DNA of 64,000 nucleotides from Candidatus Omnitrophota bacterium. Its GTDB lineage: Bacteria > Omnitrophota > Gorgyraeia > 2-01-FULL-45-10. The position numbers were made by a program, and so were the translations under genes. The notes under the pieces are model-generated. The model was given only the letters and a program-made list of their open reading frames with translations. It was not told the DNA's origin and made no database searches. The stretch lies in NCBI GenBank assembly GCA_041661345.1, contig JBAZUO010000003.1:28719-92718 (forward strand). The letters are read 5' to 3'. Shown here one piece after another: positions 4,284 to 51,451 of the stretch (positions are counted from its first letter, which is position 1; each line of letters opens with the position of its first letter).

Positions 4284-4369
4284 GCCTCCCCTTTTTTTGA
4301 TTCTGATACTGGTAAGTATACCTTCCCCCACCAGTATCTGTCAATGAGGAAACTGAAAAGTACACATAT

Positions 4370-24778: not shown

Positions 24779-24788
24779 AAGTTTCCCT

Positions 24789-24825
24789 AAAAAGCCGTAG
24801 GGGAGGTTTGAACCTCCCCTACGGC
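24789..24825 (-). terminator. Rho-independent terminator downstream of the GPH symporter gene
   Basis: On the minus strand: GCCGTAGGGGAGGTT / AACCTCCCCTACGGC (15-bp GC-rich stem) followed directly by TTTTT, 22 nt after the stop at 24848. Confidence 0.75.
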
Positions 24826-24847
24826 GAAGACTGAACAAGACAACTAC

Positions 24848-37300: not shown

Positions 37301-40300
37301 CGCTATGATAAGAAGGACCTGTCTTCCATATCGGTGCATCCGGTGTTGCGGTTATTGAGAATATCCTTTTATTCAACTTTTTCTCTCTATGCAGCATATC
37401 GACGTTTTTCAAATTATTTACAACCGAAGATGTGCTTCCGGAGCCGGAGAATGTAAGAACAAGATCGTTCTCATTGACAAGGAATTCCGGCGTTATCTCT
37501 TTGAAATCATCTACCTGGAACCCGAGAGCGCGTAATTTCTGCTGAAAGAAAACCGCAACTTCTCCGACCCTGCCGGCAGCATTAATTATTACCCTGCCGC
37601 CATGTCTTTTTGTCTCGAGAAGAAGGTCTAGCAGTTCTTTTGTTTTATCGGCATCCAGATTAGGAATTACCTGTTCGTTTATATGCTGGTACATGGCCTT
37701 GATAGAATTATTGACATAATAACTAAGGCCGAATTTGAACTTGTCGATCTCATCCTGCTGAGAACCGAATACCCTTTCATATATAACTGCCGCCCATTCC
37801 CTTGTTATCTGGCCGTCAGGCGTGTCGAAAAATGTATATTTGTCCGGTCTCCTCTTTATGCTTGTAAGAGCATCGACTATCACGTCCTTAGTAAGGCCTA
37901 ATTTTGCGGGATCCGTCGGAAGGCCTAGCGATTCCAGCATATTCTTTATATCAAAAAACGCGTGAGGATCATATTCGGTACTGTAAAGATACCCTATTAT
38001 CATCGATGCTATGCCAACTATCTCGCAATGCAATCTCGGCGTATCGGCAGGCATTAATGCCTCTATTCTGTCGGCAAGGAGGTGTTCGGAGCCGTCTTTG
38101 GGCCTTGATACACCGTATCTCATATTAAGCAACGATGCTTCAAGCATGGCTTCCGAAAGTACTATCATGCCGAGATCAGTATTGTCCCGGATGTCGCCCG
38201 CATTTTCCGATGTAAGCTTCAGTATGTCCTGTCCGGCGGCGAAAATGACATCGTCTACATCTTCTTTGCCGTCTTTAGCGGCCAATTCCCAATCCTTCAG
38301 CGCCGGATATATGCTTATAAGATCGCCGGAACCGGCCCTATTGGCCCTATCACCGCTGATACCGGTCGCAGACCTTAGGCTCAACATGTCTCTGAGAATT
38401 CCCAAGTCTATAACGACCCTGCCCATCGGCCCGGGTTCTTCCGAGATCCTGTTCCTTTCGCCACCCACCCCTTTATAAAATATAGCTTTCTCTGTAAACA
38501 TTCCGTTCGTCGAAAGCGTGCTTGGGATGGATACCGCTTCTTTCTTAAGTTTTTTAGCGCAATATTTCGCCCAATCCGTAAGTGTACCTCCGCCAAGTGC
38601 CGCCAGGGTTGAGAAATCCATCCTGGAAAGCTCCGCAAAAAGATCATCCGGCGTTTTATAGCCATCTATAAATATTATCTTGTTTTCGTTAACAAGTTTT
38701 TCGAGCCAGGCATATTTCTTACTCATCATCAAAGTAAATGCCTCTTTTGAGATCAAAAGGCGCACATTGCCGTCTTTGGACTCGTCAAAAAATCTTTGAG
38801 CGGCATTATTCCCTATCGTTGTTACGGGAAGATCGTATTTCATACTCCAGTGCGGTTTATTAACGCCACGCAAAGATTCGCCGCGGGCAATAGCATATCT
38901 TGCCGCTCCTACAGCGCCGCCCAGGTCCGGGTCAGAACTTGTTACCGTCACCTTTATCTTGTCGGCATATTCAGGATATTTTTGCTTTATAATGCCGTTA
39001 GCCAGTTCCGCAAGCCGCGGACCAGTGGCCTGTTGCGAAACTCCTCCGGCCAGCACGATCTCGTTAGCTTGTGTAATTTTGTAAAGAGCTACGGCTTCGG
39101 CCGCTATTTTGCCGGCAATGTCGCTCTCCACTTCGAAGGTCTTCTGCATAATAGAGGGTTCCAAACTCTCCAGTTCATTTTTGCTTATGCCGTGCTTATT
39201 AGCCATTGCCTCAAAAGCACTCTTCGGCACATAACCGCCATAGCAGCCCGCAACTTCGCAACCGGGATCCTTATTGGCATCCGACGACATATCTATAACC
39301 ATGTGGCCGCCTTGATTCGGGATATTTTCTATATAGCCGTCTTTTATTTTTACATAGCCCGGCCCTGTCCCTATCGGAAGAACTATCTTTGTCCCTATAG
39401 TTCTTGGGTCAACCCCCTGTCTGATACGGTTATATATTTCCCCAAAACCAAAAGCATCGGCGTCGTTCAGGACAGCTATATTTTGAATATCGAGCTCCGT
39501 CCTTATAGTATCTGCTATCGAATTTAAAGCATTGTAATCGCCGGTAAAGTCGGTCCTGCCACCTCTTGCCTTAGCCCAAAATCGTTCAAAATTGGTAAGT
39601 CTGATAACTTTAAAAGAACCGTCGCGGCGTATTTCTATCGGAGAAGGGAACGTGAGGCCGATAGATTCCACTTTCTTACTGCTTTCCCTTCCTAGCCATA
39701 ATGATGCTTTTTTAGAACATTCGATGATCTGATCCTTTAATGATGCGCCGCCTCCGGTTTTATCAACCGGCGTCCAGTCTTTATATACGACTTTATCTCC
39801 ATACATGACAACCGTCTTTATATTAGTGCCGCCGACATCCACGCCAAGATAGTATTTATTTTTAAAAGCCCCATCGGTAAGATCAAGCCGGGGAGAAAGC
39901 TCCTTATCCATGGTGAAAGCAACATCACTACTATCGCTTATCGTTATAGGTTTCCCGAAATTACTGTATATCGGCATCCTTGCATATCTCTTGTCGATAT
40001 CCGCTTTAATCATGCCAACCAATAACTTTTCCGTATTTTTATTATCCACGAACAGGGCGATATTTGTAGCGCCCTCGCATACAACTGTATTGTATATAGC
40101 AGTCGATACATACTGCGCTAAAATATCTTTATTAGTTTTTAAAAATAACACGGAAGGGATGTTAAGGCGGAGGACCTTCAACCGGTTCTCTCCGCGCTCA
40201 AGCAGAACTTTAACCGTTACGCTTTTAGGATCGGCCTGTGCCACTGCGGCGATCGCGCTATCCCAATAGTTAATGTCGCCGTTAGATGACAGCCTACCTA

Positions 40301-40808
40301 CCAAAGAATTTGAATCTAAGGTTATTTTCGGACGGTTTGGCAGTGTTTCAGATTTCGGTTTTGCATCATTGTCAAGCCTGGTTATAACATATTCACCTTG
40401 CTCGGCTATAAATGCTACCCGATACAGGCTTGCAGGTTTATCCCTGAACTTGAATACACCTATCTGTTTTTCTCTATCGTAACTTACATACTCAACCGGG
40501 CCTAATTTCAGGTTTTCCTGTACAGCAGGCGCTTTTTCGTCCCAATATATTTTTCTTCTACCTTTATATCGATTTCTTAAAACTGAATTGACCGAGCGGA
40601 GATCCTCGCCTTTGTACAGTAGGATTGCGCCACAACGTATTTCGAATTCCGAAAGATTGGATAATGCGCGGCCTACGTTGGCATCCGGCTGGGTTAATTT
40701 AGGCGTGGCGAGGGAATCCGCATACACCAATTGCGTAAAGACCTGGCTCGATATTATAAACCAGGTCAGTACGCTAAAAAGTACCCGAGATTTTTTCATC
40801 CCGATCAT
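31398..40808 (-). CDS. Giant multidomain protein 1 (3,136 aa from ATG 40808): signal/anchor + ROK kinase-like + G1PDH/DHQS-like + 2x SIS + HExxH motif + GT35-like GT-B domain + wHTH-like + unassigned C-terminus
   Basis: Uninterrupted 9.4-kb frame. Start moved from 40913 to ATG 40808 (or 40799, MKKSRVLFSVLTWFIISSQVFTQLVYA), 10 nt after the stop of giant 2. The confidence value is for being a real CDS; the function is unknown. Domains are listed separately. Confidence 0.9.
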   Translation of the reverse strand: MIGMKKSRVLFSVLTWFIISSQVFTQLVYADSLATPKLTQPDANVGRALSNLSEFEIRCGAILLYKGEDLRSVNSVLRNRYKGRRKIYWDEKAPAVQENLKLGPVEYVSYDREKQIGVFKFRDKPASLYRVAFIAEQGEYVITRLDNDAKPKSETLPNRPKITLDSNSLVGRLSSNGDINYWDSAIAAVAQADPKSVTVKVLLERGENRLKVLRLNIPSVLFLKTNKDILAQYVSTAIYNTVVCEGATNIALFVDNKNTEKLLVGMIKADIDKRYARMPIYSNFGKPITISDSSDVAFTMDKELSPRLDLTDGAFKNKYYLGVDVGGTNIKTVVMYGDKVVYKDWTPVDKTGGGASLKDQIIECSKKASLWLGRESSKKVESIGLTFPSPIEIRRDGSFKVIRLTNFERFWAKARGGRTDFTGDYNALNSIADTIRTELDIQNIAVLNDADAFGFGEIYNRIRQGVDPRTIGTKIVLPIGTGPGYVKIKDGYIENIPNQGGHMVIDMSSDANKDPGCEVAGCYGGYVPKSAFEAMANKHGISKNELESLEPSIMQKTFEVESDIAGKIAAEAVALYKITQANEIVLAGGVSQQATGPRLAELANGIIKQKYPEYADKIKVTVTSSDPDLGGAVGAARYAIARGESLRGVNKPHWSMKYDLPVTTIGNNAAQRFFDESKDGNVRLLISKEAFTLMMSKKYAWLEKLVNENKIIFIDGYKTPDDLFAELSRMDFSTLAALGGGTLTDWAKYCAKKLKKEAVSIPSTLSTNGMFTEKAIFYKGVGGERNRISEEPGPMGRVVIDLGILRDMLSLRSATGISGDRANRAGSGDLISIYPALKDWELAAKDGKEDVDDVIFAAGQDILKLTSENAGDIRDNTDLGMIVLSEAMLEASLLNMRYGVSRPKDGSEHLLADRIEALMPADTPRLHCEIVGIASMIIGYLYSTEYDPHAFFDIKNMLESLGLPTDPAKLGLTKDVIVDALTSIKRRPDKYTFFDTPDGQITREWAAVIYERVFGSQQDEIDKFKFGLSYYVNNSIKAMYQHINEQVIPNLDADKTKELLDLLLETKRHGGRVIINAAGRVGEVAVFFQQKLRALGFQVDDFKEITPEFLVNENDLVLTFSGSGSTSSVVNNLKNVDMLHREKKLNKRIFSITATPDAPIWKTGPSYHSVMVIKGRTKDIASSVKKDPAAEYLPLSSTFEYSTMLYLEGIIEALIQGGANGLNKDEAAKIVRGVIGKTPSTIKDELKEKIMENEPLTGQFIDYLLSAVERNSDGTIKKGDNDKTYSKKGIFLFGLGQNNYVIRLFARRIQNIGFEVQVPGPRDIISAPHKGDIAIFISNSGARGQMEEKMLVAKEKECPTIFITAAPHSPMAAKADLVIPISRRPTVSHTVDIMENNSDCQAERDVKRTFELASMFYLEGVSVALMKVLGVTDKDLQHVPKEWELKGPKAPQSNPLIGDIIKSGGMVEFALEEGVMRGYQVNYVNGYKPGITDPNEYRGPPVNVTDNLTKDEIATLKEWIQTHQIDDKLVKFRVALGKTALGWNNDIDHSNIAHAGENDRVIYIGEGLLKHILARGNESLREEVLDKDEFQHLQGRGHGTDAEYRTRLDLVARQSIFAEQTSAPLIGRGFNSSELNNAPITHWEDNPIFVETIKSLEQTIREKAPREIRASLLIALRRYKEGIDGRQLGISPERYESTDRYYLGFGTSKSIGASPLFFTEGSSFYKHREEALCHELFHAMRQRRDDVEDAKTAAVTHVDAMRLTALLYWNLTDAEKLKIPYLDPRDLKNHSKNEFGKAVREWRLEQSKLAEKMALDDWKSLLVDLKSAIKISNKRRANTLFEFLEACDNSASAGDNAKYPIESRYPLLRAVMLLDKAEQDKLVDILKSNLAKRRNIRALPMVDSILLLLDEELPDNWLETQAPYLAGRSIWQASSEIWYAAGGLGRVMQFHGKAMKEILKKFNIKLRHIEPMYSKRPDPQNRNAWINLDYHSDVLSYPVIGELEVVERFPVTYGDLNHPRTTEAIVYRGYNELGIEVYLIKDRDDFVTGSIYRYGDGVTLPTWEQFTSFMSAATLELVRRVETKERAEHPDTWKAPILHNNDSQLSLTSLDRIRDDTFFMDGNGQRMRYCDDEVSKSIIMPGTTHTYKNRQEGSGEYGKRMLERGGVPSKYWNYAERDFNNVYDYASCLLRTSDWQGGVSRKHVQDVTVKDYWWPEMNIVAVTNGDDRPMTGVVFRKIMKELYPDIDVEHPTPEQFLTTKKKSKESFTLKQNPANNRYYSTSSSDEQQIRLNSEQTVWSYTGRLVPEKAGRNRALCDENIEEMVTNGAQIIIAGNVQSYDDSIQLERDLIALVARLRSKPGVTGRLIFIPYFNINEQRDIFAATDFGILDSDPNTEAAGGSETHFAVTGGLIIAPPWPNGEGILVDQGIPINLEVAGEGNTFIPDVNVTQDMLRKILRAEKEKDNPELNKVLDILRKAYLAEMRKGLAMSAQVRAVYQLSAIAISRVPVNRLTAAEYLRQWSMAAAKKEGLGIYNKSAMIQDAQPALAGSIKNGLETLLGMNEFFTKGVTFEDFENARLSKHDMHRTTAQVELNELEKLGLVVVDRSEKAYRYLARSELRGLAAAEIDIVKRELLAIAQLGRRQINDSDERAGVRNTVEKIIQKNVISRISAKTRKFLLEDFINDESNLFTENNTKIILKDLYQDVFKTNPKTTVADLIDYILSNPRDFAKRFSADKSWNLAKRSPREDVLFGLRFYLGAYYNDFFSSLLKIREFRAILPTNTLVRFVSNFNWSRAGWIRRLQVHPTIFAILDRLEKAAYFGEGYSILSDGDNETRNAIMGLLVWYAPEYVPLSMLKGNEAVQREALRKLMLSGVIAKDASFEFDTASGYLEGLKPLISKDFKTLNILPEDVAQKVGEAVRDVKAGTDEMADYIHRQGEGLDLSHNFIIMRKGLVESAVGVKALPEPVRERLAKIVKQGVSGLNGKEIIEVGTREELISAMNDIIGKDKEARIAVLDDDILTGGMDPREGIAGVKGQAGTNYCAITTGMIQGLDKTTIPFINIQAMALMGVGVLYEKMSLFEMAYNLFTGHEMPPDLVSDLAGRIKWLVKALPRIIKFTDEISSLERLKKLFEVSA
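33540..35010 (-). other. Domain in giant 1: GT-B fold, glycogen/maltodextrin-phosphorylase (GT35)-like, with the PLP-lysine position occupied by His
   Basis: WYAAGGLGRVMQF (compare GGLGRLAACF), GGVSRKHVQD (compare NGVAxLH), VTNGDD (compare TNG) and TEAAGGSETHFAVTGGLIIA (compare [20 protein letters not shown]). Confidence 0.6.
36515..36945 (-). other. Domain in giant 1: SIS domain 2
   Basis: IFLFGLGQNNYVIRLFARRIQNIGF..GDIAIFISNSGARGQ. Confidence 0.6.
37155..37645 (-). other. Domain in giant 1: SIS (sugar isomerase/sugar-phosphate binding) domain 1
   Basis: GGRVIINAAGRVGEVAVFFQQKLRALGF..DLVLTFSGSGSTSS is the classic SIS Rossmann-like pattern. Confidence 0.7.
37700..38680 (-). other. Domain in giant 1: glycerol-1-phosphate dehydrogenase / DHQS-like (Fe-ADH superfamily) fold
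   Basis: ALGGGTLTDWAKY, IPSTLSTNGMF, GSGDLISIYPALKDWELA, GSEHLLAD and RLHCEIVGI are colinear with the G1PDH/AraM pattern. The metal-binding Asp in the S-x-D-G position is Asn here. Confidence 0.55.
38880..39855 (-). other. Domain in giant 1: ROK/glucokinase-like sugar kinase
   Basis: YYLGVDVGGTNIKTVV is the ATP-binding DxGGT motif. GGHMVID..DPGCEVAGCYGGYV is a partial ROK His/Cys zinc motif, and the domain ends with GGAVGAARYAI. Confidence 0.75.
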
Positions 40809-40818
40809 ATTGATATCT

Positions 40819-43800
40819 TTACACGCTCCAGAGCAACTGACGCCTTTCACGCACGCCTTCGTCGGCCTTGTAAGGCTCGAGTTTAACCTGCAGGTGTTTG
40901 AGCAGGAAATCAACCCTTTGTTCGAACGAAATCAGGTCGGGTGACTTTGCCGCAACCAGGGCATTCAGCATATCCCAATCGATCGCCTTGTTGCCGGTCA
41001 ATTTTGACATCACAGTCTTCAACCATCCGGCCATCGCGGTCTTGTCCCGTATATCCTTTTCGGTAGTATTGCCGAGTATCACACCGGCCGATTCGATCTC
41101 CCTGATGAATGGAATGCCGCGGTTTTCGGCAAACTTTACATTGGGCAGGACCATTAACCTTGTATTCTTTAATAGCTTGTCGATTTCGCTATCTTTTTTA
41201 ATCGAATCAAATTCGTCTTCAGTGAGCTGGACGACATATGTCACACCCTTTTCGGCTCCGACGAGGCTTTTCAAATTATCTTTTAGTTTTTCTATACTGC
41301 TCGTCTCGATCGCCTTAACGTCGACCATGCCGTTTGAGATGGCGCTTAAGACATCTCTCTCATGTTTCCACGAACCCGGCGTATGCTCGTTTCCGCGCCT
41401 GAACGCCTTCTCGGTCGTGATCAGGTGCACCTTGTTGCTGCGCACTGTGGGAAGGTTCGCGCGTATCGCTTCGAAGCCGGTTATTACGAGAGACTCGGCT
41501 GATAGCGGGCGATAACTCGTGCTTACAACAGAGTCCTCCTCGGCCTTGATAGTGTAGCTGCCCATCTTCGCCAGCATAGGTATCTGTTTTCCAAGCTCTG
41601 CCGTAAAGGGTTCGCCCTTTTCCGGAGTAACCGTAACTTTGCCTTTTTCGACAAAAATAACATGATATGTTTCCGGCGGTATCAGGGCGCCGCTTGCTAC
41701 AGAATGACCTGCCGATATCGTATACCTGCCTCCGACAAAACCTTCGGTCATACCCATAATTTCCGCTCTTGCTACATTCTGAGTCGCCTCTTCGCTTGCG
41801 AGAATGGATGGGAATTCGAGATCCTTCGGCTCGATCCGGTTCAAACTGCCGTTGGCAACGAGCGTATCCAATATCTTATCGATCTTGGCCTGGTCCAGGC
41901 CGGTTATATTATTAGCCGCGTCCTTCGTGACCATAGTAAGAAGGTCTTTATTTTCACGCAGAAGTTTTGACTCGATCAATTTTTTCGCCGCTTCCACTGG
42001 TATATTTTCGGCTACTATCGCGGCAACCTTCGCCATGTCTTCGGCGCTTAGCTTCAGCCAATCGCCGAATGATGTGGTGCGCTTACTATCCTGAGACGCA
42101 GGCACATCTTTTGATTCTGATACGAAATTGTCCGCATCATACGCATGAATAGTGAACGCGGGTATCACATAGAGCTTATCCTTTTCGACCTTCACACGAT
42201 GGAATATGCTTCTATCGTGGGCTTTCATTGCCGCGGCAAACTCATCGCGGGTCAAAGACTTCTTGAGCCCGACATACGCGTAACCATCTTGAAGGGGTCG
42301 TATCATCTCGACAAAATCATGTATCTGTATCGAGAGGGTCTTTGCCGAGGCAAGGCGTTTATTCGTAATACCGCTGTCGATGCCTACCTCCTGCACATGC
42401 CTTGCGCCGTATACTTCGTTGGGCCAGAACGCGCCCAGCACTTCTACGGGTAAGAGATATCCTGTCCCCACATCGATATCGCCGGCGCCTTCCCAAAGCT
42501 CGGCAAGAACCTCGCCAACCTTGATCTCTTCCTTAAGCCACTCATCGAAAGGCGATTTCTCTCCGGGGATCTTATTATATTCTTTCTCGTATGCGGCCTT
42601 CTGTTGAGCCGTCAAGTTGTTCATTACCGTCTCAATCTGTTCTTCCAGGGTAGCCTTTCCCAACTGCTCAAGTATAGGATTGAGCACCTGTGCCCCAGCC
42701 TTTTGGGTCACTATCGGGTTTCCCCATGTATATCCGTCTATGCCCAGCCTCATGAAGAGCCGCTGGACTATAGGCTGACCGGAGTGAATAATCTGGTCCA
42801 GGGTTTCGAGCGCTTTGACATAATCTTTAATGTCTTTAGGCTCCACCGGCTTCAATTGACCGGCCGTCTTTGCTGTTCTGGGCCTTATAGCTAACTGGGC
42901 TATGAATGCATCGATCATAACGCTTCCACTTGTAACGATATCGGTTAATTGCCTAAAACTGTTTACTCCGAATATTTCGAAGAGATCATTATATGGAACA
43001 AGCTGAATAACGTCCAGCGCTTTTTCATTGACCTTGATAAGCGCGGGAGATCCTTTACCGTAGCTAACGATCGTATAGCCGGCCTGTGAAGGTTTTTCAT
43101 GGGTGATTGCGTGTTCTATTATCGCGAGATTGTCATTAATAACCTGCTCGATTGTTTTACCGGCCACATTAGTTTTTAAGCCGGGGTTAAAATTCAATAC
43201 ATGCGCCGGCGCAAGTCTCGCGCTGACGTCGTTAAAGACGGCTATGCGGCTTATCGGTGAAATGTAATCGACAGAGCCGGGAATGGATAATGCGGCCTCA
43301 CCCTCCCCTATATTTTGCGCATAGTTGGCCGTCATCTCTCCTTTGGTGTTGTAAATATCCGAGAACTGCACCATTTGGCCTCTGACCATACGTTTCATAT
43401 CCAGCTTATCCGACTGGAAGTGCCCTCTGCCGGTCGAGATATGTTGTATGGAGCCGGGAAGCCTGTTATGTAAAAATACCGTCGTGTGCATACCGCTTAC
43501 ATGTAGCATCGTATACATTACGAGCCTATCGAGCTTATCCTTATTCTCGGCATAAACTGCTTCTGGAATTATATTCTCGCCGTTCTTGCCGAGCTTCGAG
43601 ACGCTCTCCGCACCGCGCCAGTAGATGCCTTCAGCGCCTTCTTTTATAGCGACTACCATTCCCCCAGGTATCGACAGTCCGTTAATATAGCTCGGCCCCC
43701 TGACAGCGTCCGGCGCTTTTAACATTTCGGCGAGGTTTGTGGTAAGGGTGATCTTCTCTGCCCCCTTTATGCCGTTATCGATCAGGTTCTGGAGCGCGAT

Positions 43801-46800
43801 CGTATTACCTACCATTATCTGAAGGCCCTTCGCTACATTTATATCTTTTATGGTCAGAGCCCGTTCGGACATCGCCGCGTAGACCCTCTCGAATACCGGC
43901 CACGCCGCATTCCGCTCTTCCTGCGTCATCGCCGCGTATCGCTTGTTCAATTCATTCGATACGACAGCCAACGCGTCCAGATACCGGGGTTCTTCAATAT
44001 ATTTGAACATTTCGCTTACAACTTCATCACCGGTTGCATAATTTCCTAATATCGAGGTCATAATTCTATCCATATCCTTCTGCGCAAGTGGCGCAATTTC
44101 AGGCGCATTTATTTCCTGCGGCGGTGAAAGCCTGGAGAATTCCTCAATGGCCATTTCCAATTCCGCGATGCGGACAGGATCCTGCGATTCCTGTACCACC
44201 GGTAGAATCTGTTTCAAAAATCCGGCGGGGCTTTCTTGGACTAAGGTTATAAAGTATTCGAGCTTATCCTGCGGTATCACATTTAATTCGTCCCTAAGAA
44301 CCTTTAGAGCAGTATCGCTGACCCCAAGCTGTATCTTGAGTTCTGCCACAAGGGACTTTATCTGATTGGAGCGTTGTCTGTCAAAAGCGGAAACAGCGTA
44401 TATGCCGGGGGTAGTCTCTTGCTGAACGGTTTTCTGTTGGGCATTAGAGGCCGTCGTGCTCGTTCCTGCTGCGAAGTCCTGTATTAGATGCACGAGAACG
44501 CCTGTACCCGACATCTTCGCGGCATCTTTTAATTCATTGGCACGCGCCTGCGTACTCGCTTCAGCATACATCCTGAACTGTGCAGCATTGCCTGACGGCC
44601 TAAGATGCACAATCTCGCCGTCTATATTATTAAGGTATATGCGGACTCCGTCAAGGTAATTTATCCTGTTGATGCCGACTCCTTTTAATCCGGGCAGCAT
44701 ATTTATGTAATTCTGCAGCCGTTGCGTTATCTTTTTGGCAGAATCGGCAAGTTCGGCCGGAGCCTCCCGCCTTTCTTCTGAGTCCTCCGTCGTGTAATAG
44801 ACCTTACCGTCTTCAAATATTATATTCGTAATTCTGGCTGCGTCCGGAGACTTCGGTGTAAAGCTCGCGACTATAGCAGGCCCCATTTCGGCTTTGTAAA
44901 CTTCACATCCGGGTGTGCATTTGCCTCCCGGCACATTTTCCACAAGCCCGGCAGCGGCGTAACTCTCATACTCACCCGAGAATTCGCTGGCAATTAGCTG
45001 GGAGACCGACATATTCTTCTGCATAGCGAGCAGCATTGCCGATAGCATAGGCAGAAACGCATCTCTGGTAGGTAAGGATTTTAACACCTTACCGTTAGAC
45101 ATTGTAAGATCGGACATAAGTATATAGCCGCCGTTACATTCAAAACCTGCTTTTCTGGTTAACTTTCCACCAGCTGCAATTTCTCGTTCTTCCTGCCTCA
45201 TCGCGGCTTCTATAACATACGGCGAACCTACGCGTGTGTTTACAACTTGTATCCCATATTTTTTTGACATCAATTTGAGCGCATTCGTATTAGCGGTAAC
45301 AGGCAAATCGGTAAATTCGACGCCCAGGAATATATTCGTAAGTACGCCGAGTTTATCGCCGTAGAGAAATTCTCCGTTTTCATCGCAGAATACCGGCCTA
45401 TCGGAATCACCGTCAAAGGTTATGATAGCAAACGGCTTCGTCCCGATCTCTTTTTCGTATTCTTTGGAATAACGGCGCATCCTATCTTTTACTTCGTCGC
45501 TTAAGTTTTCCGTGTCAACCGACGCAAATTCTTCAGCGGAATCTTTGCGGATAACAGTTGCTCCTAATGCTTCAAAGACCAGAGGAATGATATCTCTTCC
45601 AACTGCCGACTGCTGCCAGCAGATTATAGTCTTTCCTTTTAAAGGCTGGCCGAAGGCCTCAACATACCTATTTAAGTACAACGCATCCGCAGGAGAAAGT
45701 TTCAGGTCAGACGGCATCGTCCCGGTCTTTGGGACTGATACGATCTTCGTATTCTTAACGTTGCTAAGCGCAAGGCTGCCATTCGGATCCTCAAGGACTA
45801 ACTCACCAGCTCTTCTCAAAAGATCCGCGCTGGCTGGATCCGCCAACTCGTTAATACCCCTGAGAGCTCCGTTAAAATCGAACATCGAATCTTCCCAACT
45901 CTTGGCATACTCCTCCTGCCTTACTGCAGTTATATATTTTGCCAAAAGCGGCTCTTCAAGCTTCAGCAATTCACCGTTCAAACGGTCTGTCTTCACGCCA
46001 TTCTCGTTCTTCGGATTATGGCTTGCTGTAACTTCGGAATTGGTCATGGGATTATTGCTATTAAGGCCATAATTCGCTATTACCGGCGAAGCTGTTAATC
46101 CCTGAAAATCTACCTTCACTCCTTCAGCCAATGCGGCTAAAGCTATAGCTCTACAGAGGCGCACCGTGGACTCCCTGCGGTCTCCGCCTAATGCAAACAC
46201 TCCGTCGTTCGCCGGTAACGCACCTGCAATAACCTGGGACAGCACATAATCATTGTTCAGGTTTTGAATATCTTTAGCTGCGCAGAGATAACGCAGTTCG
46301 GCTCTCAAGTTGATATAAACTTCTAAATCTGTAAGAACAAAATTGACCGGATCGTTAATATTTGCGTTGCCCCTCAGGCCGCTAGTGCCCATCTTGACGG
46401 GTTTGAACTTAGTCTTGCAATATTCGGCCCTGTTTAACGCGGAACATACTTTAAGCATGGCAAGCCTTCTGGCTAAATCAAATATGCGTTCATTCGCGGC
46501 TTTGCCGCACGGCAAATTTCTTATGTCACCGAATGAATACGCGTTGTCTCCGAATTTTACGCCATCCGACATTTTTGCTGCCAAGGCCTTGTCTGCCGGC
46601 TTCGGATCGTAGCCTACCGGACCTCTCATTCTCGTATGGCCATCTTGGAATCTGGCATCCCTTATGACAGGCCTGTACGCATCAGCAACTATCTCTTTCT
46701 TAGCAGGTATCTCTTTTTCGTCAAGGGCATTGATAATTATACTGTTATACGCGCTTATCATCGATGATGTTGAAGATTCGACATATGAATTTTGTGCCTG

Positions 46801-49800
46801 GATTAACCCCTGGGAATTATTGATAACACTGCTTAAGATAACGGAACCCGGCAGAAGAACGGTGTTGCCCTGTATAATAGAACCTCTCACCCTAACTCCG
46901 TAACCTTCCCAGCCGTTACGAACCTGCTCGGCGTTAAGAGTGACCCTGTGGCCGCTGACTTCGAATACGCACACCGCGTCATCTTTTATCGACCTCAGCC
47001 TACGGGCGTCCTCAGCTCTTACTTTATCCCACACGTTCGGCTGGGTCTTCGTCGCATCGCCGTTAGGTTCCAGAGCAATGTTGGTTCCCGCCAGATCTGC
47101 GAGCATAAAGAACTTCTCGTTGCCCATATCGAGCAATCTCTTATACGCGAACCAATGGCTGGACGGGCCGAAGTCTATGATGCCGAATCCTTTCGAAAGA
47201 TTGACTTTGTGTTTGTACCTTATAAAGAACTCTATCGTCTCATATATGGCATTCATGTTATCGGGTTTGCCTGCATCAAGTTCTTTCTTGGCTTTATTAT
47301 GAAGGTCTTCTAATACAGCCTTGTACTCTGGACTCATTATGTTTATCAATGCGTTATACGCCTTGTCTAAAACCGCATTTTTATAGGAACCGAAAACGGA
47401 ATTCAAATCTGCGATGCTTGGAAGCTTACCTAACATGGCCTCTTTGCCTATAATTCCATTCACTAACGGAACCATGATCTGGGTCATGTGCGGATCTATC
47501 TCTCGCGATATTCCGGCCCTTCCTTCTTTATCGCCACCCATGACATGGAATATATTTTTGACATCGCGCCAGTATTCTAAAAGTGCATTCTGCATATCGA
47601 GGCTCATGCTGAATGAGCCGTAATCGAAATATGCCCTTCCCTCGCGAGCCGCTTCCATCAGTTCGTTGTATTGAGCCTGCCAGTCCGGGTTGGGAATGTA
47701 TTTACCGTCCGGGCCCTTCATGGTAAGCCTCTTATTTCCGATGAATTTCAATATTCGGCCGTCTTTAGTCGCGATCAAAGTACCGTAATCGAACAGGTCC
47801 TTCATGTCCGGATTGGCGGGCAGAGCTACTGCAAATTTATTGAAAACGTAATCGTGGCGTTCTGTGCTAGGTGCTGTTCCAAACTCTATCTGGTTAGCCC
47901 AGTAAACATCATGGCGCGTGCCGTCATTAGAAGCCGCATTATAGGAAGTACTCAAAATTACCGCCAGAAGAAGATTCAATTCAACCGGCTCGCCCTGTTT
48001 ATTGAATATATTGCCCACAAGCAGCTGATCTGCTCTCGAGAGATTAAGCGCCTGCCCCGCAGGAGAGAATCTCTCTGCCTTGCCGCCGTTATGGTATGTA
48101 ACGATCTTGGATCTTTTCTGGGACTGGAGTTTCGCGAGGTCTGTCTCCGGCAGATTATTGTCGCGGGCCCATTTCTTGAACGCTTTGCAAGCTTCGACCC
48201 ACGTATTATCCTGTCCTATAAGGTTATTACCCTCTGAGGAATCGAGCACCGAAAGGACGCATACCTTATTACCCATATCCTTGTTCGATGTTTTAACACC
48301 TTTGAAAACTTTTTCGAGCTTTGCCTGCTGGTCTTTTGCTTCGCCTTCGGTCGTGGAGCTTATAATAATGACATCGTAGCCGTTATAGGGCTCAGTCAGT
48401 ACTTTCTTTATCCGGTCTATATTATTTCTACGCTCATAAACTGTCTTGGCAAACTCACCGGCCTCATATGATTTGCCTTCATTCCTTAGCCTTACTATCT
48501 CATCGCGGGCGGCCGTACCATAATTACTGTCGGTAAGGACAGTCTCTTCTATCTGATAGACAGCGTTTCGTTTCCGCTCTTCATCTATATTCGCAAGAAA
48601 TTGCCTTATAGTCATATTACCGCGCAGCCAACCATATGCTTTCCTGGTGTCAGCGCCCGGTACGCGACGATCGACAATAAGTTCCTCGTCTACGCCTGGG
48701 CTTCTCAAGGCTGCCCTGTAGGCTTCTGAATTTTCTTTGTTGGCAATCTGTATGTGGGCGAGCTCATGCGTACCGATAATTCTAAGCGCTTCTTTCAAGC
48801 CTGCATTCGTCAGGTTTTCGAATCTGAATGCGCTTATGTGGCCCTGCCTTAAACCATGCTGGAACACTTCGCCGCCTCTTCCGGGATGCACCCTATCTGT
48901 CGGAAGATTCGTACCGTGTTCCTTATTATATTTTTCAATTCTCGCTTCGAGGCCGTAATGAACTACAAACTGGAAATCACCCAGCTCCGTGAAACCGAGC
49001 TCTTTTGCTGTAACTATCTTGTAGGTCTTATCCGCGAAGCTCTGGCGCAGTATCTCATCCATCATCCGTGCTTCTTTGTATGTAAGCTCTTTCGCGGCTA
49101 AATTATCGCCATCGATAGCCTTCGTGCCCGGGCTCGACTCATCGGATTGCACGGCGCCATCCCGGCGAGCTTTCAAGTTCCTGCGCTCTGCCACTTCCGC
49201 CGCACGCGCCGTAAACTCCTTTTCGAATCTTTCACGAATGGACGGAAACTCGGCTTTTACCATCTCTACCAGGGCTTTTCTGACATCGGAATTTACCCTG
49301 TATCTGGCGCATCTATTATTTATCTCATCTATGATGGAGGCCTCTATTTCATTCTGCGTCTTAAGCCCTCCAACCTCTTTAAGCATGTGCGCAACGATAC
49401 CATTTATATTTATTGCGGCTGTTTTTACACCGTCGATCTCTATCGCGGCCCACCCATTCCTGAAATCCAAATGCCTGTCCACGGGCGTACGGCCATCGGG
49501 GCCGGGAATAAATTCGCTTTTCAACTTTTCAAGCCCTTTGGGACTGAGCGCAATCCACTGCGTCATCAGCTGTGCCGCCACCGATCCTTCTTTGGCATGG
49601 GCAGTGCCGACCAATATATTTTCGAGAGGTGTCCTCTGGTTAGTTAAAATTTCGATATACGGCGTGGGGACGTCCTTAGTGATGGACGGGCAGACGACCA
49701 TATAGGAGACGCCTTCTTTTTCCAGAAGTTTCGCGATGCCTTCCGAGTGGAAGCCGCCTGTGACAAGGACCGCGATATTCTGCTTCTCTTTCTTCATCGC

Positions 49801-51183
49801 GTTTAATGTGTTATCAACAAGCGCCTTATCGCGCTTTATCGCTATCGAATAAAAATCCTCCAACTGCGGGATACTCTTCGCCACCGCTTCTGTGGGCGGG
49901 GTGATCTCGTATGCAAACCCGTACTGTGTAGTCTTCTTCTTTATGAAGTCGATAAAATATTCGGATGTGAATTCAGCCTTATTCGCCTGGTAATAATCGA
50001 AATCACCGTTCATGAGCTTTATATTGATAAGCCCCAGGAGTATATCGATATGGCGGGAGAGCTTTTCGAGCGTCCTCTGGTCGTCATTGGTAAAAAGTTT
50101 CTCTTTGACAGCGATCTCTATATTTTTCAGGTCCTGGAACAGTTTCTCATTCTCGATCTTGGAGTAGACGGCGTTATATATTATATAGTTGTAGAGATTA
50201 GGATATTTCTTCGAAAGGTCGATGCTGTTAGAGGCGGCGAGGTTTTTCAGGTACGCGTAATATTCGGCGGATGAAATCCTGCCTGATTTAAAAGATATGG
50301 ACAGCGATACTAACTGCTGAAGCTGGTCTTTTGTGATCGCTTTACTAAGCTCATCTATGAGAGCGCTTCTCTCTTTGTCGGTGAGATTAAAATCTATCTT
50401 CTTTTCATATATCAGAACACTAACTAATCTAAAGAAATTATCGTAGCTTCTTAAATTTATCTGATGATGTTCCGCAAGCGCCTGCAGGAACCTTATGTAA
50501 TCATTGAATTGGATCTTCTTCGACTCGTAATCCTGGACCTTCGCGTCAAGGGCCTTGAGCTCTTCACTATATATGTAACCTTTCAGGCGGCTCAAGACCG
50601 TCTTTATCGAATTGAAATATTTTTCAGTTTCGCCCTTCAGGGGGTAACTTGCGGTAAACGCATTTAAATTCTGAATGTAATATGAGCGTGTCTCGGCGCC
50701 AAATAGCTTAAACGGCAGGTCCGTCGTAATCGATAAAAATTCAGGGCCAGTTATCTCGCCCTTTTTCATGAAGTAATCCGCGACCTCTTTTCTCACCTCA
50801 TCGTCCGGGAACGCCTTAAACCACGACGTATCTATAAAGCCGTCCGCGCCTTCTACCGATACCAGGCCAAGATTGTAATTCTTTATTAATCCCTCTACTA
50901 TCTTTACTATATTGGACTGGGCTTCATAATTACAATGGGCATCCTGGATGTGGACTATAAATTTACCGGAATTGCCGGTAAATTTATTCTTTACGAGGCC
51001 AAAATCACGAGGCACAACTACGGAGTCCGGAGTTATAGCAATATCCTGTTTTTTTGCAGAGTCAATGTTGGATTTGGTAGGTAACGCGAACGCTATATTC
51101 GACAGAAGAAAAGCCTGGATGAGTAAAATGGAGATCGTTTTATTTACGATCTTACACCGCCTGGAATGGTCCCAGATCATCAT
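40819..51183 (-). CDS. Giant multidomain protein 2 (3,454 aa): signal/anchor + ChaN/TIKI/TraB-like region + HExxH motif + fucokinase-N-type NDP-sugar pyrophosphorylase-like + phosphohexomutase + PMI-like cupins + unassigned regions
   Basis: Uninterrupted 10.4-kb frame. The N-terminus MMIWDHSRRCKIVNKTISILLIQAFLLSNIAFA is signal-peptide-like. The confidence value is for being a real CDS; the function is unknown. Confidence 0.9.
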   Translation of the reverse strand: MMIWDHSRRCKIVNKTISILLIQAFLLSNIAFALPTKSNIDSAKKQDIAITPDSVVVPRDFGLVKNKFTGNSGKFIVHIQDAHCNYEAQSNIVKIVEGLIKNYNLGLVSVEGADGFIDTSWFKAFPDDEVRKEVADYFMKKGEITGPEFLSITTDLPFKLFGAETRSYYIQNLNAFTASYPLKGETEKYFNSIKTVLSRLKGYIYSEELKALDAKVQDYESKKIQFNDYIRFLQALAEHHQINLRSYDNFFRLVSVLIYEKKIDFNLTDKERSALIDELSKAITKDQLQQLVSLSISFKSGRISSAEYYAYLKNLAASNSIDLSKKYPNLYNYIIYNAVYSKIENEKLFQDLKNIEIAVKEKLFTNDDQRTLEKLSRHIDILLGLINIKLMNGDFDYYQANKAEFTSEYFIDFIKKKTTQYGFAYEITPPTEAVAKSIPQLEDFYSIAIKRDKALVDNTLNAMKKEKQNIAVLVTGGFHSEGIAKLLEKEGVSYMVVCPSITKDVPTPYIEILTNQRTPLENILVGTAHAKEGSVAAQLMTQWIALSPKGLEKLKSEFIPGPDGRTPVDRHLDFRNGWAAIEIDGVKTAAININGIVAHMLKEVGGLKTQNEIEASIIDEINNRCARYRVNSDVRKALVEMVKAEFPSIRERFEKEFTARAAEVAERRNLKARRDGAVQSDESSPGTKAIDGDNLAAKELTYKEARMMDEILRQSFADKTYKIVTAKELGFTELGDFQFVVHYGLEARIEKYNKEHGTNLPTDRVHPGRGGEVFQHGLRQGHISAFRFENLTNAGLKEALRIIGTHELAHIQIANKENSEAYRAALRSPGVDEELIVDRRVPGADTRKAYGWLRGNMTIRQFLANIDEERKRNAVYQIEETVLTDSNYGTAARDEIVRLRNEGKSYEAGEFAKTVYERRNNIDRIKKVLTEPYNGYDVIIISSTTEGEAKDQQAKLEKVFKGVKTSNKDMGNKVCVLSVLDSSEGNNLIGQDNTWVEACKAFKKWARDNNLPETDLAKLQSQKRSKIVTYHNGGKAERFSPAGQALNLSRADQLLVGNIFNKQGEPVELNLLLAVILSTSYNAASNDGTRHDVYWANQIEFGTAPSTERHDYVFNKFAVALPANPDMKDLFDYGTLIATKDGRILKFIGNKRLTMKGPDGKYIPNPDWQAQYNELMEAAREGRAYFDYGSFSMSLDMQNALLEYWRDVKNIFHVMGGDKEGRAGISREIDPHMTQIMVPLVNGIIGKEAMLGKLPSIADLNSVFGSYKNAVLDKAYNALINIMSPEYKAVLEDLHNKAKKELDAGKPDNMNAIYETIEFFIRYKHKVNLSKGFGIIDFGPSSHWFAYKRLLDMGNEKFFMLADLAGTNIALEPNGDATKTQPNVWDKVRAEDARRLRSIKDDAVCVFEVSGHRVTLNAEQVRNGWEGYGVRVRGSIIQGNTVLLPGSVILSSVINNSQGLIQAQNSYVESSTSSMISAYNSIIINALDEKEIPAKKEIVADAYRPVIRDARFQDGHTRMRGPVGYDPKPADKALAAKMSDGVKFGDNAYSFGDIRNLPCGKAANERIFDLARRLAMLKVCSALNRAEYCKTKFKPVKMGTSGLRGNANINDPVNFVLTDLEVYINLRAELRYLCAAKDIQNLNNDYVLSQVIAGALPANDGVFALGGDRRESTVRLCRAIALAALAEGVKVDFQGLTASPVIANYGLNSNNPMTNSEVTASHNPKNENGVKTDRLNGELLKLEEPLLAKYITAVRQEEYAKSWEDSMFDFNGALRGINELADPASADLLRRAGELVLEDPNGSLALSNVKNTKIVSVPKTGTMPSDLKLSPADALYLNRYVEAFGQPLKGKTIICWQQSAVGRDIIPLVFEALGATVIRKDSAEEFASVDTENLSDEVKDRMRRYSKEYEKEIGTKPFAIITFDGDSDRPVFCDENGEFLYGDKLGVLTNIFLGVEFTDLPVTANTNALKLMSKKYGIQVVNTRVGSPYVIEAAMRQEEREIAAGGKLTRKAGFECNGGYILMSDLTMSNGKVLKSLPTRDAFLPMLSAMLLAMQKNMSVSQLIASEFSGEYESYAAAGLVENVPGGKCTPGCEVYKAEMGPAIVASFTPKSPDAARITNIIFEDGKVYYTTEDSEERREAPAELADSAKKITQRLQNYINMLPGLKGVGINRINYLDGVRIYLNNIDGEIVHLRPSGNAAQFRMYAEASTQARANELKDAAKMSGTGVLVHLIQDFAAGTSTTASNAQQKTVQQETTPGIYAVSAFDRQRSNQIKSLVAELKIQLGVSDTALKVLRDELNVIPQDKLEYFITLVQESPAGFLKQILPVVQESQDPVRIAELEMAIEEFSRLSPPQEINAPEIAPLAQKDMDRIMTSILGNYATGDEVVSEMFKYIEEPRYLDALAVVSNELNKRYAAMTQEERNAAWPVFERVYAAMSERALTIKDINVAKGLQIMVGNTIALQNLIDNGIKGAEKITLTTNLAEMLKAPDAVRGPSYINGLSIPGGMVVAIKEGAEGIYWRGAESVSKLGKNGENIIPEAVYAENKDKLDRLVMYTMLHVSGMHTTVFLHNRLPGSIQHISTGRGHFQSDKLDMKRMVRGQMVQFSDIYNTKGEMTANYAQNIGEGEAALSIPGSVDYISPISRIAVFNDVSARLAPAHVLNFNPGLKTNVAGKTIEQVINDNLAIIEHAITHEKPSQAGYTIVSYGKGSPALIKVNEKALDVIQLVPYNDLFEIFGVNSFRQLTDIVTSGSVMIDAFIAQLAIRPRTAKTAGQLKPVEPKDIKDYVKALETLDQIIHSGQPIVQRLFMRLGIDGYTWGNPIVTQKAGAQVLNPILEQLGKATLEEQIETVMNNLTAQQKAAYEKEYNKIPGEKSPFDEWLKEEIKVGEVLAELWEGAGDIDVGTGYLLPVEVLGAFWPNEVYGARHVQEVGIDSGITNKRLASAKTLSIQIHDFVEMIRPLQDGYAYVGLKKSLTRDEFAAAMKAHDRSIFHRVKVEKDKLYVIPAFTIHAYDADNFVSESKDVPASQDSKRTTSFGDWLKLSAEDMAKVAAIVAENIPVEAAKKLIESKLLRENKDLLTMVTKDAANNITGLDQAKIDKILDTLVANGSLNRIEPKDLEFPSILASEEATQNVARAEIMGMTEGFVGGRYTISAGHSVASGALIPPETYHVIFVEKGKVTVTPEKGEPFTAELGKQIPMLAKMGSYTIKAEEDSVVSTSYRPLSAESLVITGFEAIRANLPTVRSNKVHLITTEKAFRRGNEHTPGSWKHERDVLSAISNGMVDVKAIETSSIEKLKDNLKSLVGAEKGVTYVVQLTEDEFDSIKKDSEIDKLLKNTRLMVLPNVKFAENRGIPFIREIESAGVILGNTTEKDIRDKTAMAGWLKTVMSKLTGNKAIDWDMLNALVAAKSPDLISFEQRVDFLLKHLQVKLEPYKADEGVRERRQLLWSV
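41495..42520 (-). other. Domain in giant 2: type I phosphomannose-isomerase-like cupin pair
   Basis: ELWEGAG.., LSIQIHDF (compare LSIQVHPD) and PAFTIHAYDADNFVSE (compare PAGTVHAxGxGxxxxEIQ), then a C-terminal small cupin (YTISAGHSV..YHVIFVEKGKVTV). Confidence 0.5.
44555..46400 (-). other. Domain in giant 2: alpha-D-phosphohexomutase (PGM/PMM-like), complete four-subdomain signature
   Basis: KMGTSGLRG, TASHNPKNENG (phosphoserine loop), FDGDSDRP (Mg loop), LPTRDAFLP and RPSGNAAQFRMYAEAS. It belongs to the same unusual subfamily as the stand-alone gene 23147..24778. Confidence 0.85.
46715..48390 (-). other. Domain in giant 2: L-fucokinase N-terminal-type (GDP-sugar pyrophosphorylase-like) nucleotidyltransferase + hexapeptide beta-helix
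   Basis: YDVIIISSTTEGEAKDQQAKLEKVF (compare the WDxIVLTAxxxxQAxxYxxQL pattern) and TYHNGGKAERFSPAGQALNLS (compare hSGGxSxRLP). It is followed by the Ile/Val/Ser-rich hexapeptide-like stretch GSIIQGNTVLLPGSVILSSVINNSQGLIQAQNSYVESS. Confidence 0.5.
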
Positions 51184-51289
51184 TTTATAAGCCTCCGAAT
51201 TTTTTATACATACTTTGTAAAACGACTGAATTATCCAGATTATAAAAATCCCTCTCGCGCTATATTAAATATAGCGTTAAGGTACTAAA

Positions 51290-51318
51290 AGTATAGCTTA
51301 TATTTATTACTTAGTCAA
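51290..51318 (-). promoter_or_regulatory. Sigma70-type promoter candidate TTGACT-17 nt-TATACT upstream of giant ORF 2
   Basis: Minus-strand reading: TTGACT (51318-51313), a 17-nt spacer, then TATACT (51295-51290), about 105 nt upstream of ATG 51183 in an AT-rich 268-bp gap. Confidence 0.5.
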
Positions 51319-51413
51319 TGGTACAATTCTTACTTTTTTATAGTCTAACGGTAGCCTATCCTCGCCTTGTATGAAGCCGCTTGGCGGGGCCCATACACGG
51401 CGAAGATAAGCCA

Positions 51414-51442
51414 TCTAACCTGGTTAAACTAACCAGGTTAGA
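51414..51442. other. Perfect 13-bp inverted repeat TCTAACCTGGTTA-AAC-TAACCAGGTTAGA
   Basis: Lies 9 nt downstream of the giant ORF 3 stop codon (51452-51454). No clean U-tract follows, so it could be a weak terminator, an RNA stabiliser or a dimeric-protein binding site. Confidence 0.6.
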
Positions 51443-51451
51443 CTAAATTCA

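Follow-up and report, generated by a model that had tools for sequence, protein, structure and literature searches.

Two adjacent giant proteins encoded in a 64,000-nucleotide (nt) stretch of DNA from a Candidatus Omnitrophota metagenome-assembled genome (MAG), hereafter the window, begin with leaders that resemble Sec-type signal peptides and carry sugar-metabolising enzyme modules behind them. Judged from their sequence features, we hold with moderate confidence that these leaders are real signals of the signal peptidase I class, and that both proteins, referred to as giant 1 and giant 2, are exported across the inner membrane. The leaders are probably cleaved. An earlier sequence-only reading had flagged the interval 40700-51183 for signal-like N-termini on giants, and this resemblance goes beyond chance: giant 2 has a canonical n-h-c layout shared by 119 of 119 homologs, and the weaker leader of giant 1 is kept in its orthologs. 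The flagged interval contains only the first ~30 codons of giant 1, and the gap between the giant 2 stop and the giant 1 start is 10-19 nt.

40819..51183, minus strand: giant 2 coding sequence, 3454 residues, 100% identical to P0001 (NCBI 'WC738_01260 hypothetical protein, Candidatus Omnitrophota bacterium')
31398..40799, minus strand: giant 1 coding sequence, 3133 residues from the ATG at 40799 (MKKSR), with an alternative ATG at 40808

The start of giant 2 is preceded by a strong ribosome-binding site, and the in-frame starts within its first 110 codons are ATG1, ATG2 and then a GTG at codon 57, which lacks a ribosome-binding site and falls within conserved protein sequence. The leader that follows from this start has an n-region of net charge +3, an uncharged h-region and alanines at positions -3 and -1 relative to the cut that signal peptidase I is predicted to make between A33 and L34 (SNIAFA/LP).

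51192..51196, minus strand: giant 2 ribosome-binding site GGAGG, 8 nt upstream of the ATG at 51183
51085..51183, minus strand: predicted giant 2 signal peptide, residues 1-33, with n-region MMIWDHSRRCKIVNK, h-region TISILLIQAFLL and c-region SNIAFA
51037..51084, minus strand: giant 2 linker, residues 34-49, variable and of low confidence, between the signal peptide and the N-module

In both giant 2 and its family the h-region comprises 12 residues (-18 to -7) with a 10-residue Kyte-Doolittle mean of 2.5, and the leader is the sole segment of giant 2 that reaches 1.6 over 19 residues (best 19-residue window 2.04). On a crude n-h-c leader score, with exported and cytoplasmic proteins of the window as controls, giant 2 reaches 3.42 and giant 1 reaches 2.21, as compared to 3.6-4.1 for six exported window proteins, while the cytoplasmic enzymes score 2.5 at most or lack the layout altogether. 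Similarly designed leaders are present in the GH113 enzymes, the CBM27 protein, the solute-binding lipoprotein and the inverse autotransporter encoded in the window, but not in its cytoplasmic enzymes. An AlphaFold2 model built on a 22-sequence alignment (mean predicted local distance difference test score, pLDDT, 78.8) places the leader in a helix (residues 3-33), followed by a disordered linker (33-48, pLDDT below 50) and a globular module (50-503). The possibility that the leader helix forms part of the globular fold was ruled out, since the disordered linker separates the two in this model.

The same leader design recurs in all 119 giant 2 homologs, which are 2.0-5.6 thousand residues long and, wherever the source gives an organism name, belong to Omnitrophota. 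Among the GTDB genome loci, 62 of 78 match the strict motif, and a signal-like leader is found in each of the 76 loci with a complete 5' end. The near-invariant motif reads K-x-[IV]-S-[LIV]-x-L-x-x-x-F-x-[FL]-[SY]-N-[IV]-[AS]-F-A. Counted over 97 register-aligned leaders, position -19 is K or R in 96, -16 is S in 77, -5 is N in 75 and -9 is F in every one; position -3 is A, S, G, V or I, -2 is F, Y or L, and -1 is A in 89, G in five and S in three. From +1 on, the conservation drops away, and +1 itself is A, V, D, S or E but not proline. At -3 and -1, the family accepts the substitutions that signal peptidase I permits. The signal peptide (51085-51183 in the window; homologs P0002-P0120) and the module that follows it show about the same degree of conservation, which is unusual for Sec signals.

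The residues around the leader display further properties of exported proteins. The flanks of the hydrophobic segment carry a mean charge of +3.8 before and -0.9 after it in the family, which, by the positive-inside rule, would put the enzyme array outside. Low positive charge in the early mature region is a known constraint on Sec substrates, and the first 18 mature residues have a net charge of zero or below in 84% of cases against 68% of internal 18-mers, while a net charge of +2 or more is found in 3.6% against 15.6% (p=1e-4, with sequences that are not independent of each other). A 19-residue Kyte-Doolittle scan finds no membrane segment in giant 2 besides the leader and no window of 1.6 or above in giant 1, and 112 of 127 relatives have no other window of at least 1.7, the remaining ones having one or two borderline windows. 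Because the N-terminal hydrophobic segment is the only one, the whole enzyme array should lie on one side of the membrane. The family median of the uncharged stretch is 20 residues, long enough to span a membrane, although the conserved -3/-1 pattern argues for cleavage; whether the leader acts as an uncleaved anchor or as a cleaved signal, the bulk of the protein is predicted to be outside either way.

Other classes of signal were considered and rejected. Giant 2 contains an SRRCKIV sequence reminiscent of a Tat signal, but the two arginines are not kept in the homologs, which have a single K or R at -19, and there is no match to a TAT model. A lipoprotein signal was dismissed because neither the giants nor the family have a cysteine at +1, while the solute-binding protein of the window displays a true lipobox (LAGC), and the G/F-x-x-x-E motif of type IV prepilins is missing from both leaders. 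Pfam and NCBIfam scans returned no match of the giant leaders to a known conserved-signal model.

The leader of giant 1 is a plausible signal peptide, but weaker than that of giant 2. It consists of an n-region with a charge of +3, an 11-residue core with a Kyte-Doolittle value of ~2.6 and a long polar c-region.

40719..40799, minus strand: giant 1 signal-like leader, residues 1-27 (MKKSR / VLFSVLTWFII / SSQVFTQLVYA), predicted cut before DS

No Shine-Dalgarno sequence precedes the ATG of giant 1, and in the JGI annotation (P0121) the protein starts at the GTG of codon 28, thereby leaving out the hydrophobic segment. The upstream start is nevertheless favoured, since the leader is conserved as protein in the orthologs P0126, P0123 and P0138, with the cleavage pattern [VA]-Y-A/D. 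The syntenic protein of a related MAG, P0126, begins with MRKYRIIINTLAWLVIISQAFTLSPVYA/DSLATPKL as compared to MKKSRVLFSVLTWFIISSQVFTQLVYA/DSLATPKL in giant 1; 13 of the 27 leader residues are identical, the other changes are conservative and there is one in-frame indel. The gene of P0126 comes after an unrelated 140-residue gene. The earlier reading had named a downstream start codon with a better ribosome-binding site as one possible refutation: after ATG2, giant 2 offers no start before codon 57, and giant 1 has its GTG at codon 28, yet the hydrophobic segment that it would remove is conserved.

In addition, the reading frame of giant 1 stays open for 38 codons further upstream (TTG at 40913; window 40799-40913), a stretch that it shares with the end of giant 2 but reads in a different frame. 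This extension is Cys-rich and not conserved in the ortholog, and it is probably not translated. The 140-residue gene of the related MAG, located between the giant 2-like and the giant 1-like genes (L081 9510-9932 / L082 20255-20677), encodes a '23S rRNA intervening sequence protein' domain.

Behind the leaders, the two giants carry modules whose folds and motifs are those of sugar-phosphate and nucleotide-sugar enzymes.

46429..48543, minus strand: sugar-nucleotide pyrophosphorylase module of giant 2, residues 881-~1585, ADP-glucose-pyrophosphorylase fold, invariant NGGKxERxSP
44521..46245, minus strand: phosphoglucomutase/phosphomannomutase domains I-IV of giant 2, residues 1647-2221, loops TASHNP, DGDSDRP, ECNGG and RPSGN..R intact
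38886..39524, minus strand: ROK-family sugar kinase module of giant 1, Pfam 5e-8, motifs DVGGTNIK and NDADAFG
37788..38645, minus strand: NAD(P)-dependent glycerol-1-phosphate dehydrogenase / Fe-ADH-like module of giant 1, E=1e-35
36648..37673, minus strand: two SIS sugar-phosphate isomerase modules of giant 1, E=7e-28
33576..35021, minus strand: GT-B module of giant 1 resembling alpha-glucan synthase/phosphorylase, with borderline scores (GT5 at 21.1 bits, cut-off 22.7; TIGR02094 E=0.001)

The phosphoglucomutase of giant 2 is recognised by Pfam through its domains I-IV, domain II lying below its cut-off, and its phosphoserine, metal, sugar and phosphate loops do not vary among 50 giants whose mutual identity is only 35-60%. 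The pyrophosphorylase region has no Pfam or NCBIfam match; its AlphaFold2 model (residues 881-1620, pLDDT 79, predicted template modelling score 0.81) finds 1yp4_A as the best Foldseek match (E=1e-4, probability 1.0), and the top 30 matches are all ADP-glucose pyrophosphorylases with probabilities of 0.9-1.0, although the template modelling scores are only 0.2-0.4. In giant 1, the ATP-binding and catalytic motifs of the ROK kinase are present, and the GT-B module has no match in a search of PDB sequences. Taken together, the modules of both giants span the route from glucose through glucose-6-phosphate (G6P) and glucose-1-phosphate (G1P) to nucleoside diphosphate (NDP)-glucose and glucan. The enzyme modules look functional, and the strict conservation of their catalytic residues suggests that they are used as enzymes.

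The kinase, mutase and pyrophosphorylase content named by the sequence-only reading is thus borne out by the ROK match, the four phosphoglucomutase domains and the ADP-glucose-pyrophosphorylase fold. Its description of the modules as dependent on ATP or other nucleoside triphosphates (NTPs) applies to the ROK kinase and the nucleotidyltransferase, but not to the phosphoglucomutase and the SIS isomerases, which need sugar phosphates only.

Giant 2 also contains a HELAH motif in a region that may represent a metallohydrolase or processing module. The motif is unchanged in all 12 homologs aligned, and conserved histidines (H766, H776, H782) are located upstream of it.

48754..48768, minus strand: HELAH (HExxH) motif of giant 2, residues 806-810

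A processing-protease module common to the three giants of the gene row (HELAH in giant 2, HELFH at residue 1731 of giant 1 and HEYAH in the giant encoded upstream) was rejected, as no similarity between the three regions is detectable. Likewise, the resemblance of the C-terminal third of giant 2 to mannose-6-phosphate isomerase is at the motif level only (E.W.G … LSIQIH), with no Pfam, PDB or BLAST match, and was not used. Pfam and NCBIfam scans of giants 1 and 2 found no adhesin or CBM domains, and no C39/S8 peptidase, HEAT, TPR or dockerin domains. The enzyme cassette of giant 1 (a 260-residue domain, ROK, the G1P-dehydrogenase-like module and two SIS modules) also occurs in P0131 and P0133, proteins of ~1350 residues without a signal-like N-terminus.

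Comparison of the homologs suggests that the leader is part of a larger unit. All giant 2 homologs share residues 1-~545 and have little else common to all, and the shared part appears to be a leader cassette made up of the signal peptide, a flexible linker and a ~450-residue hydrolase-like N-module, with varied sugar enzymes fused behind it. One genome per species was scanned for the cassette, which gave at least 351 loci, and several genomes have two copies. The loci listed are all labelled Omnitrophota or, in some third party annotation assemblies, 'uncultured Planctomycetia', a label that we presume to be a mislabel. According to Pfam, the domains behind the cassette in the homologs include phosphofructokinase, phosphoglycerate kinase, FBPase, transaldolase and two kinds of glucose-6-phosphate isomerase, together with UDP-glucose pyrophosphorylase, CofD, epimerases and methyltransferases.

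49675..51036, minus strand: N-module of giant 2, residues 50-503, alpha/beta core with a ~300-residue helical insert and invariant H83, C84, E111 and H479

The N-module, which always stands directly behind the signal peptide, weakly resembles the Tiki/ChaN/erythromycin-esterase superfamily. Its match to Pfam ChaN (PF04187) has E=0.05 in giant 2, and 11 of 22 members match weakly, at best with E=0.013. The highest Foldseek probabilities are those of EreC (0.44, E=0.33), 3b55 and ChaN (0.16), all with E above 0.08, while phmmer and profile searches against PDB sequences gave no match. The module shares with the Tiki/ChaN/erythromycin-esterase (TraB/PrgY/GumN) proteins an alpha/beta core and a His…Glu…His arrangement, found in HIQDAHCN, VEGA and GGFH, but it has no significant match to them and its ~300-residue helical insert has no counterpart there.

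Syntenic genes of the related MAG appear to keep their N- and C-terminal parts, while the enzyme cassettes between them are being swapped. P0007, a near ortholog of giant 2 at a syntenic position (L082), aligns with it only at residues 12-813 and 2565-3454, which implies that the middle of the gene has been exchanged, and it carries an NTP_transferase Pfam match. Similarly, P0126 (L081) is 1969 residues long and has a phosphofructokinase where giant 1 has its ROK, SIS and GT-B modules.

Giants 1 and 2 are the last two of three very long genes that follow one another on the minus strand, the first of which extends past the end of the window. This upstream giant combines many membrane segments with a GT2 synthase-like domain.

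51452..64000 and past the window end, minus strand: upstream giant, at least 4182 residues in the window, many membrane segments, GT2 synthase-like domain, NAGPA domain
51413..51443, minus strand: terminator-like hairpin directly after the stop codon of the upstream giant, consensus match only
51290..51318, minus strand: promoter-like TTGACT-17-TATACT ~100 nt upstream of the giant 2 ATG, consensus match only

An Rfam scan of 40600-51600 found no RNA family. About 12 membrane segments were counted by hand in the upstream giant, a count of ambiguous parity for placing the GT2 domain relative to the N-terminus, and this synthase-like domain lies at residues ~1750-1920 of its in-window part; NAGPA is a phosphodiester-glycosidase domain, an HExxH motif (HEYAH) is present, and a HIT-like HIHYHWQ motif is found in the 1500-residue tail, which has no membrane segment. 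The syntenic ortholog of the upstream giant is 7356 residues long. The protein search that did recover giants 1 and 2 gave no match to the sequence of the upstream giant itself, and a metagenome scan for its N-terminus gave none either. Sequence resembling its C-terminal part precedes the cassette in 16 further genomic loci, or 17 if the syntenic relative is counted. More generally, in 37 of 48 loci at least 80% of the ~2.75 kb examined ahead of the cassette is taken up by one same-strand open reading frame.

Downstream of the giants, a co-directional locus for beta-mannan and cellodextrin utilisation occupies window positions ~9900-31341. Its secreted and binding proteins are two GH113 mannanases, CBM27 and mannan-binding proteins and a solute-binding lipoprotein, transport is represented by ABC permeases and an MFS sugar transporter, and the cytoplasmic enzymes comprise GH130 and GH94 phosphorylases and two GFO/IDH oxidoreductases. 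Further genes encode a GT2 protein, a ROK-family regulator, a histidine kinase with a response regulator and a xylose-isomerase-like TIM barrel. The locus also contains a second phosphoglucomutase gene of cytoplasmic type.

23147..24838, minus strand: stand-alone phosphoglucomutase/phosphomannomutase, 563 residues, without a signal peptide

This stand-alone enzyme is encoded 16 kb away from giant 2, and the pair of a free and a giant-embedded copy is also found in the related MAG (L081). Since a signal-less phosphoglucomutase is present, the copy in giant 2 need not be the housekeeping one, which fits two compartments. Elsewhere in the window (2187-4331), a 714-residue protein combines an inverse-autotransporter beta-domain with a beta-helix and an Lcl C-terminal domain, which implies that the organism has an outer membrane and surface adhesins.

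If the leaders do act as Sec signals, translocation through SecYEG and cleavage would free soluble enzyme arrays of ~350-380 kDa into the periplasm or onto the cell surface. There, in what is a weaker inference, glucose would be converted to G6P by the ROK kinase, to G1P by the phosphoglucomutase, to NDP-glucose by the GlgC-like module and finally to alpha-glucan by the GT-B module, for which sugar phosphates and nucleotides would be needed outside, plausibly derived from a host or prey. That such a sugar-phosphate and nucleotide-sugar pathway works outside, fed by ATP, NTPs and sugar phosphates of a host or otherwise, with the signal motif and the N-module serving as a dedicated export or sorting cassette, is a tentative proposal that we find rather doubtful as it stands; in a related variant, the leader would direct the protein to an internal compartment enclosed by a membrane. 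Some Omnitrophota encode ATP/ADP translocases (PMC10066038), implying that external ATP is sometimes available. Together with the export of glycogen enzymes and the phosphoglucomutase CT295 by Chlamydia trachomatis (PMC4829429, PMC9251005), they make a host-fed extracytoplasmic pathway conceivable, although the mannan locus of this MAG resembles one of a free-living sugar fermenter.

Several observations weigh against export. ATP, NTPs or NAD(P)H as well as sugar phosphates are needed by the ROK kinase, by the nucleotidyltransferase, by the NAD(P)-dependent dehydrogenase-like module and by any synthase that uses NDP-sugars, and none of these compounds is known to occur in the periplasm of free-living bacteria. 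The catalytic residues of the phosphoglucomutase and the nucleotidyltransferase are, moreover, strictly conserved. Furthermore, the mannan locus with its cytoplasmic GH130 and GH94 enzymes points to a saccharolytic, possibly free-living organism, and this company suggests enzymes that would logically serve cytoplasmic sugar-phosphate metabolism. Signal-less homologs of the enzyme cassette of giant 1 exist (P0131, P0133), and the leader of giant 1 is only moderately hydrophobic.

The main rival reading is that the hydrophobic N-terminus targets or tethers each giant to the membrane while the enzyme array remains on the cytoplasmic face. Such a membrane-bound metabolon would supply the upstream GT2 synthase with nucleotide sugars or serve the adjacent sugar-utilisation pathway, and the resemblance of the leaders to canonical signal peptides would be misleading. 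All of the fused modules are cytoplasmic-type enzymes with intact catalytic residues and the cofactor needs described above, and the genes lie between the GT2-containing membrane giant and a cytoplasmic sugar-phosphate pathway, in an order of giant followed by N-module giant that is conserved in the same 37 of 48 loci. The leader is far more conserved than ordinary signal peptides, which would suit a structural or partner-binding helix. In addition, only a minority of the complete genomes of the phylum have hexokinase and glucose-6-phosphate isomerase according to KofamScan, and such steps could therefore reside in the giants. We nevertheless regard a tether of this kind as unlikely, because the charge bias (+3.8 on the N-flank, -0.9 on the C-flank) predicts an N-in/C-out orientation, no second membrane segment is available to return the chain, and the early mature region is poor in positive charge, as in exported proteins. 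An uncleaved tether would also give no reason for the h-region of ~12 residues and the family-wide A, G or S at -1 with a small residue at -3 to persist, and no mechanism is known by which a Sec-type leader would stay in the membrane while the chain on its C-terminal side is not translocated.

A second explanation accepts export but denies the chemistry: the enzyme-like modules would be carbohydrate-binding or adhesive parts of a surface coat, moonlighting or pseudo-enzymes that need no ATP. Omnitrophota giants have been proposed to act as surface coats or adhesins (PMC10066038), and signal-bearing giants are common in the phylum. This explanation appears quite improbable, as the phosphoglucomutase loops are invariant across the 50 divergent giants, the nucleotidyltransferase signature does not vary either, the ROK kinase has its ATP-binding and catalytic motifs, and no adhesin or CBM domain was found in either giant. 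Finally, the suggestion that the leaders are wrong-start artefacts and the real proteins begin downstream as ordinary cytoplasmic fusions, which could draw on the JGI call at codon 28 of giant 1 and the missing Shine-Dalgarno sequence at its ATG, is barely credible, being effectively refuted for giant 2 by the strong ribosome-binding site of ATG1, the position of the next start at codon 57 in conserved sequence and the conservation of the leader as protein in 119 homologs and 76 loci, and unlikely for giant 1 given its conserved leader in P0126 (with the in-frame indel), P0123 and P0138.

Export of the two giants is not without parallels. Signal-bearing multi-enzyme giants have already been described for Omnitrophota in two preprints, and giants 1 and 2 are smaller members without other membrane segments. 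West-Roberts et al. 2023 (bioRxiv 10.1101/2023.11.21.568195) note that glycolytic and phosphoglucomutase domains of giant proteins are predicted to be extracellular, and a 2026 preprint (10.64898/2026.06.07.730766) reports 9-13% 'signal-peptide-only' long proteins and a multi-enzyme class, with DeepTMHMM assigning other Omnitrophota long proteins to signal-peptide-only and signal-peptide-plus-transmembrane classes. These multi-enzyme long proteins and Archaeovorins come from the same phylum, combine many sugar-metabolism domains (phosphoglucomutase, starch synthase, ROK kinase) in one polypeptide and have a predicted N-terminal signal, which poses the same paradox of cytoplasmic enzymes outside. 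With 3133 and 3454 residues, however, giants 1 and 2 are below the class of at least 10 thousand residues screened by DeepTMHMM in 2026 and the class of at least 30 thousand residues of 2023, and they have no other membrane segment and no C39/S8 peptidase, HEAT, TPR or dockerin domain. The lack of further membrane segments also means that the overlooked transmembrane segments invoked in 2023 for larger giants do not apply here. The passages retrieved from the two preprints by term search contain no mention of the signal plus N-module cassette and its conserved signal motif, which may be described elsewhere. The sequence-only reading had called any outcome unusual, which stands for bacteria in general but not for Omnitrophota, where the arrangement is recurrent and already reported.

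A comparable case outside the phylum is Chlamydia, a member of the PVC group, in which glycogen synthase, other glycogen enzymes and phosphoglucomutase act outside the bacterium's own cytoplasm (PMC4829429, PMC9251005). There too, a housekeeping enzyme has gained a secretion signal, and host-supplied nucleotide sugar and sugar phosphates are used. The chlamydial enzymes, however, are separate proteins of normal size with type 3 secretion signals and are delivered into the inclusion lumen, whereas giants 1 and 2 have Sec-type signals, are fused giants that include a kinase and a pyrophosphorylase, and come from an organism with no known host association.

The pathway itself resembles the classical GlgC-GlgA route to glycogen in that a ROK kinase, a phosphoglucomutase, an ADP-glucose-pyrophosphorylase fold and a GT-B alpha-glucan enzyme are all represented. 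In the classical pathway, these are separate signal-less cytoplasmic proteins, whereas here they are found in two signal-bearing giants with many uncharacterised segments, and the GT-B assignment of giant 1 is borderline and could correspond to a phosphorylase rather than to GlgA. Sequence-conserved signal peptides are also familiar from very large secreted proteins, such as ESPR (autotransporters/TpsA), YSIRK-G/S and KxYKxGKxW. The giant 2 leader is like them in its conserved signal sequence, but its motif (K..S.L...F.[FL][SY]N[IV][AS]FA) differs.

Giants 1 and 2 offer a better test case than the published giants of 10-147 thousand residues, as they are short enough to be cloned in parts and have one leader and no other membrane segment; moreover, since the leader cassette of giant 2 is found at more than 350 loci, one result would generalise. 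Should the arrays remain inside, a canonical signal peptide complete with its cleavage site would be serving another use, and topology predictors would be systematically wrong for the giants of the phylum. If they work outside, nucleotide-dependent carbohydrate metabolism would take place in a bacterial extracytoplasmic space. The metabolism and lifestyle read from the genomes of a widespread uncultured phylum would then change, and glycolytic steps scored as present or absent may have been assigned to the wrong compartment.

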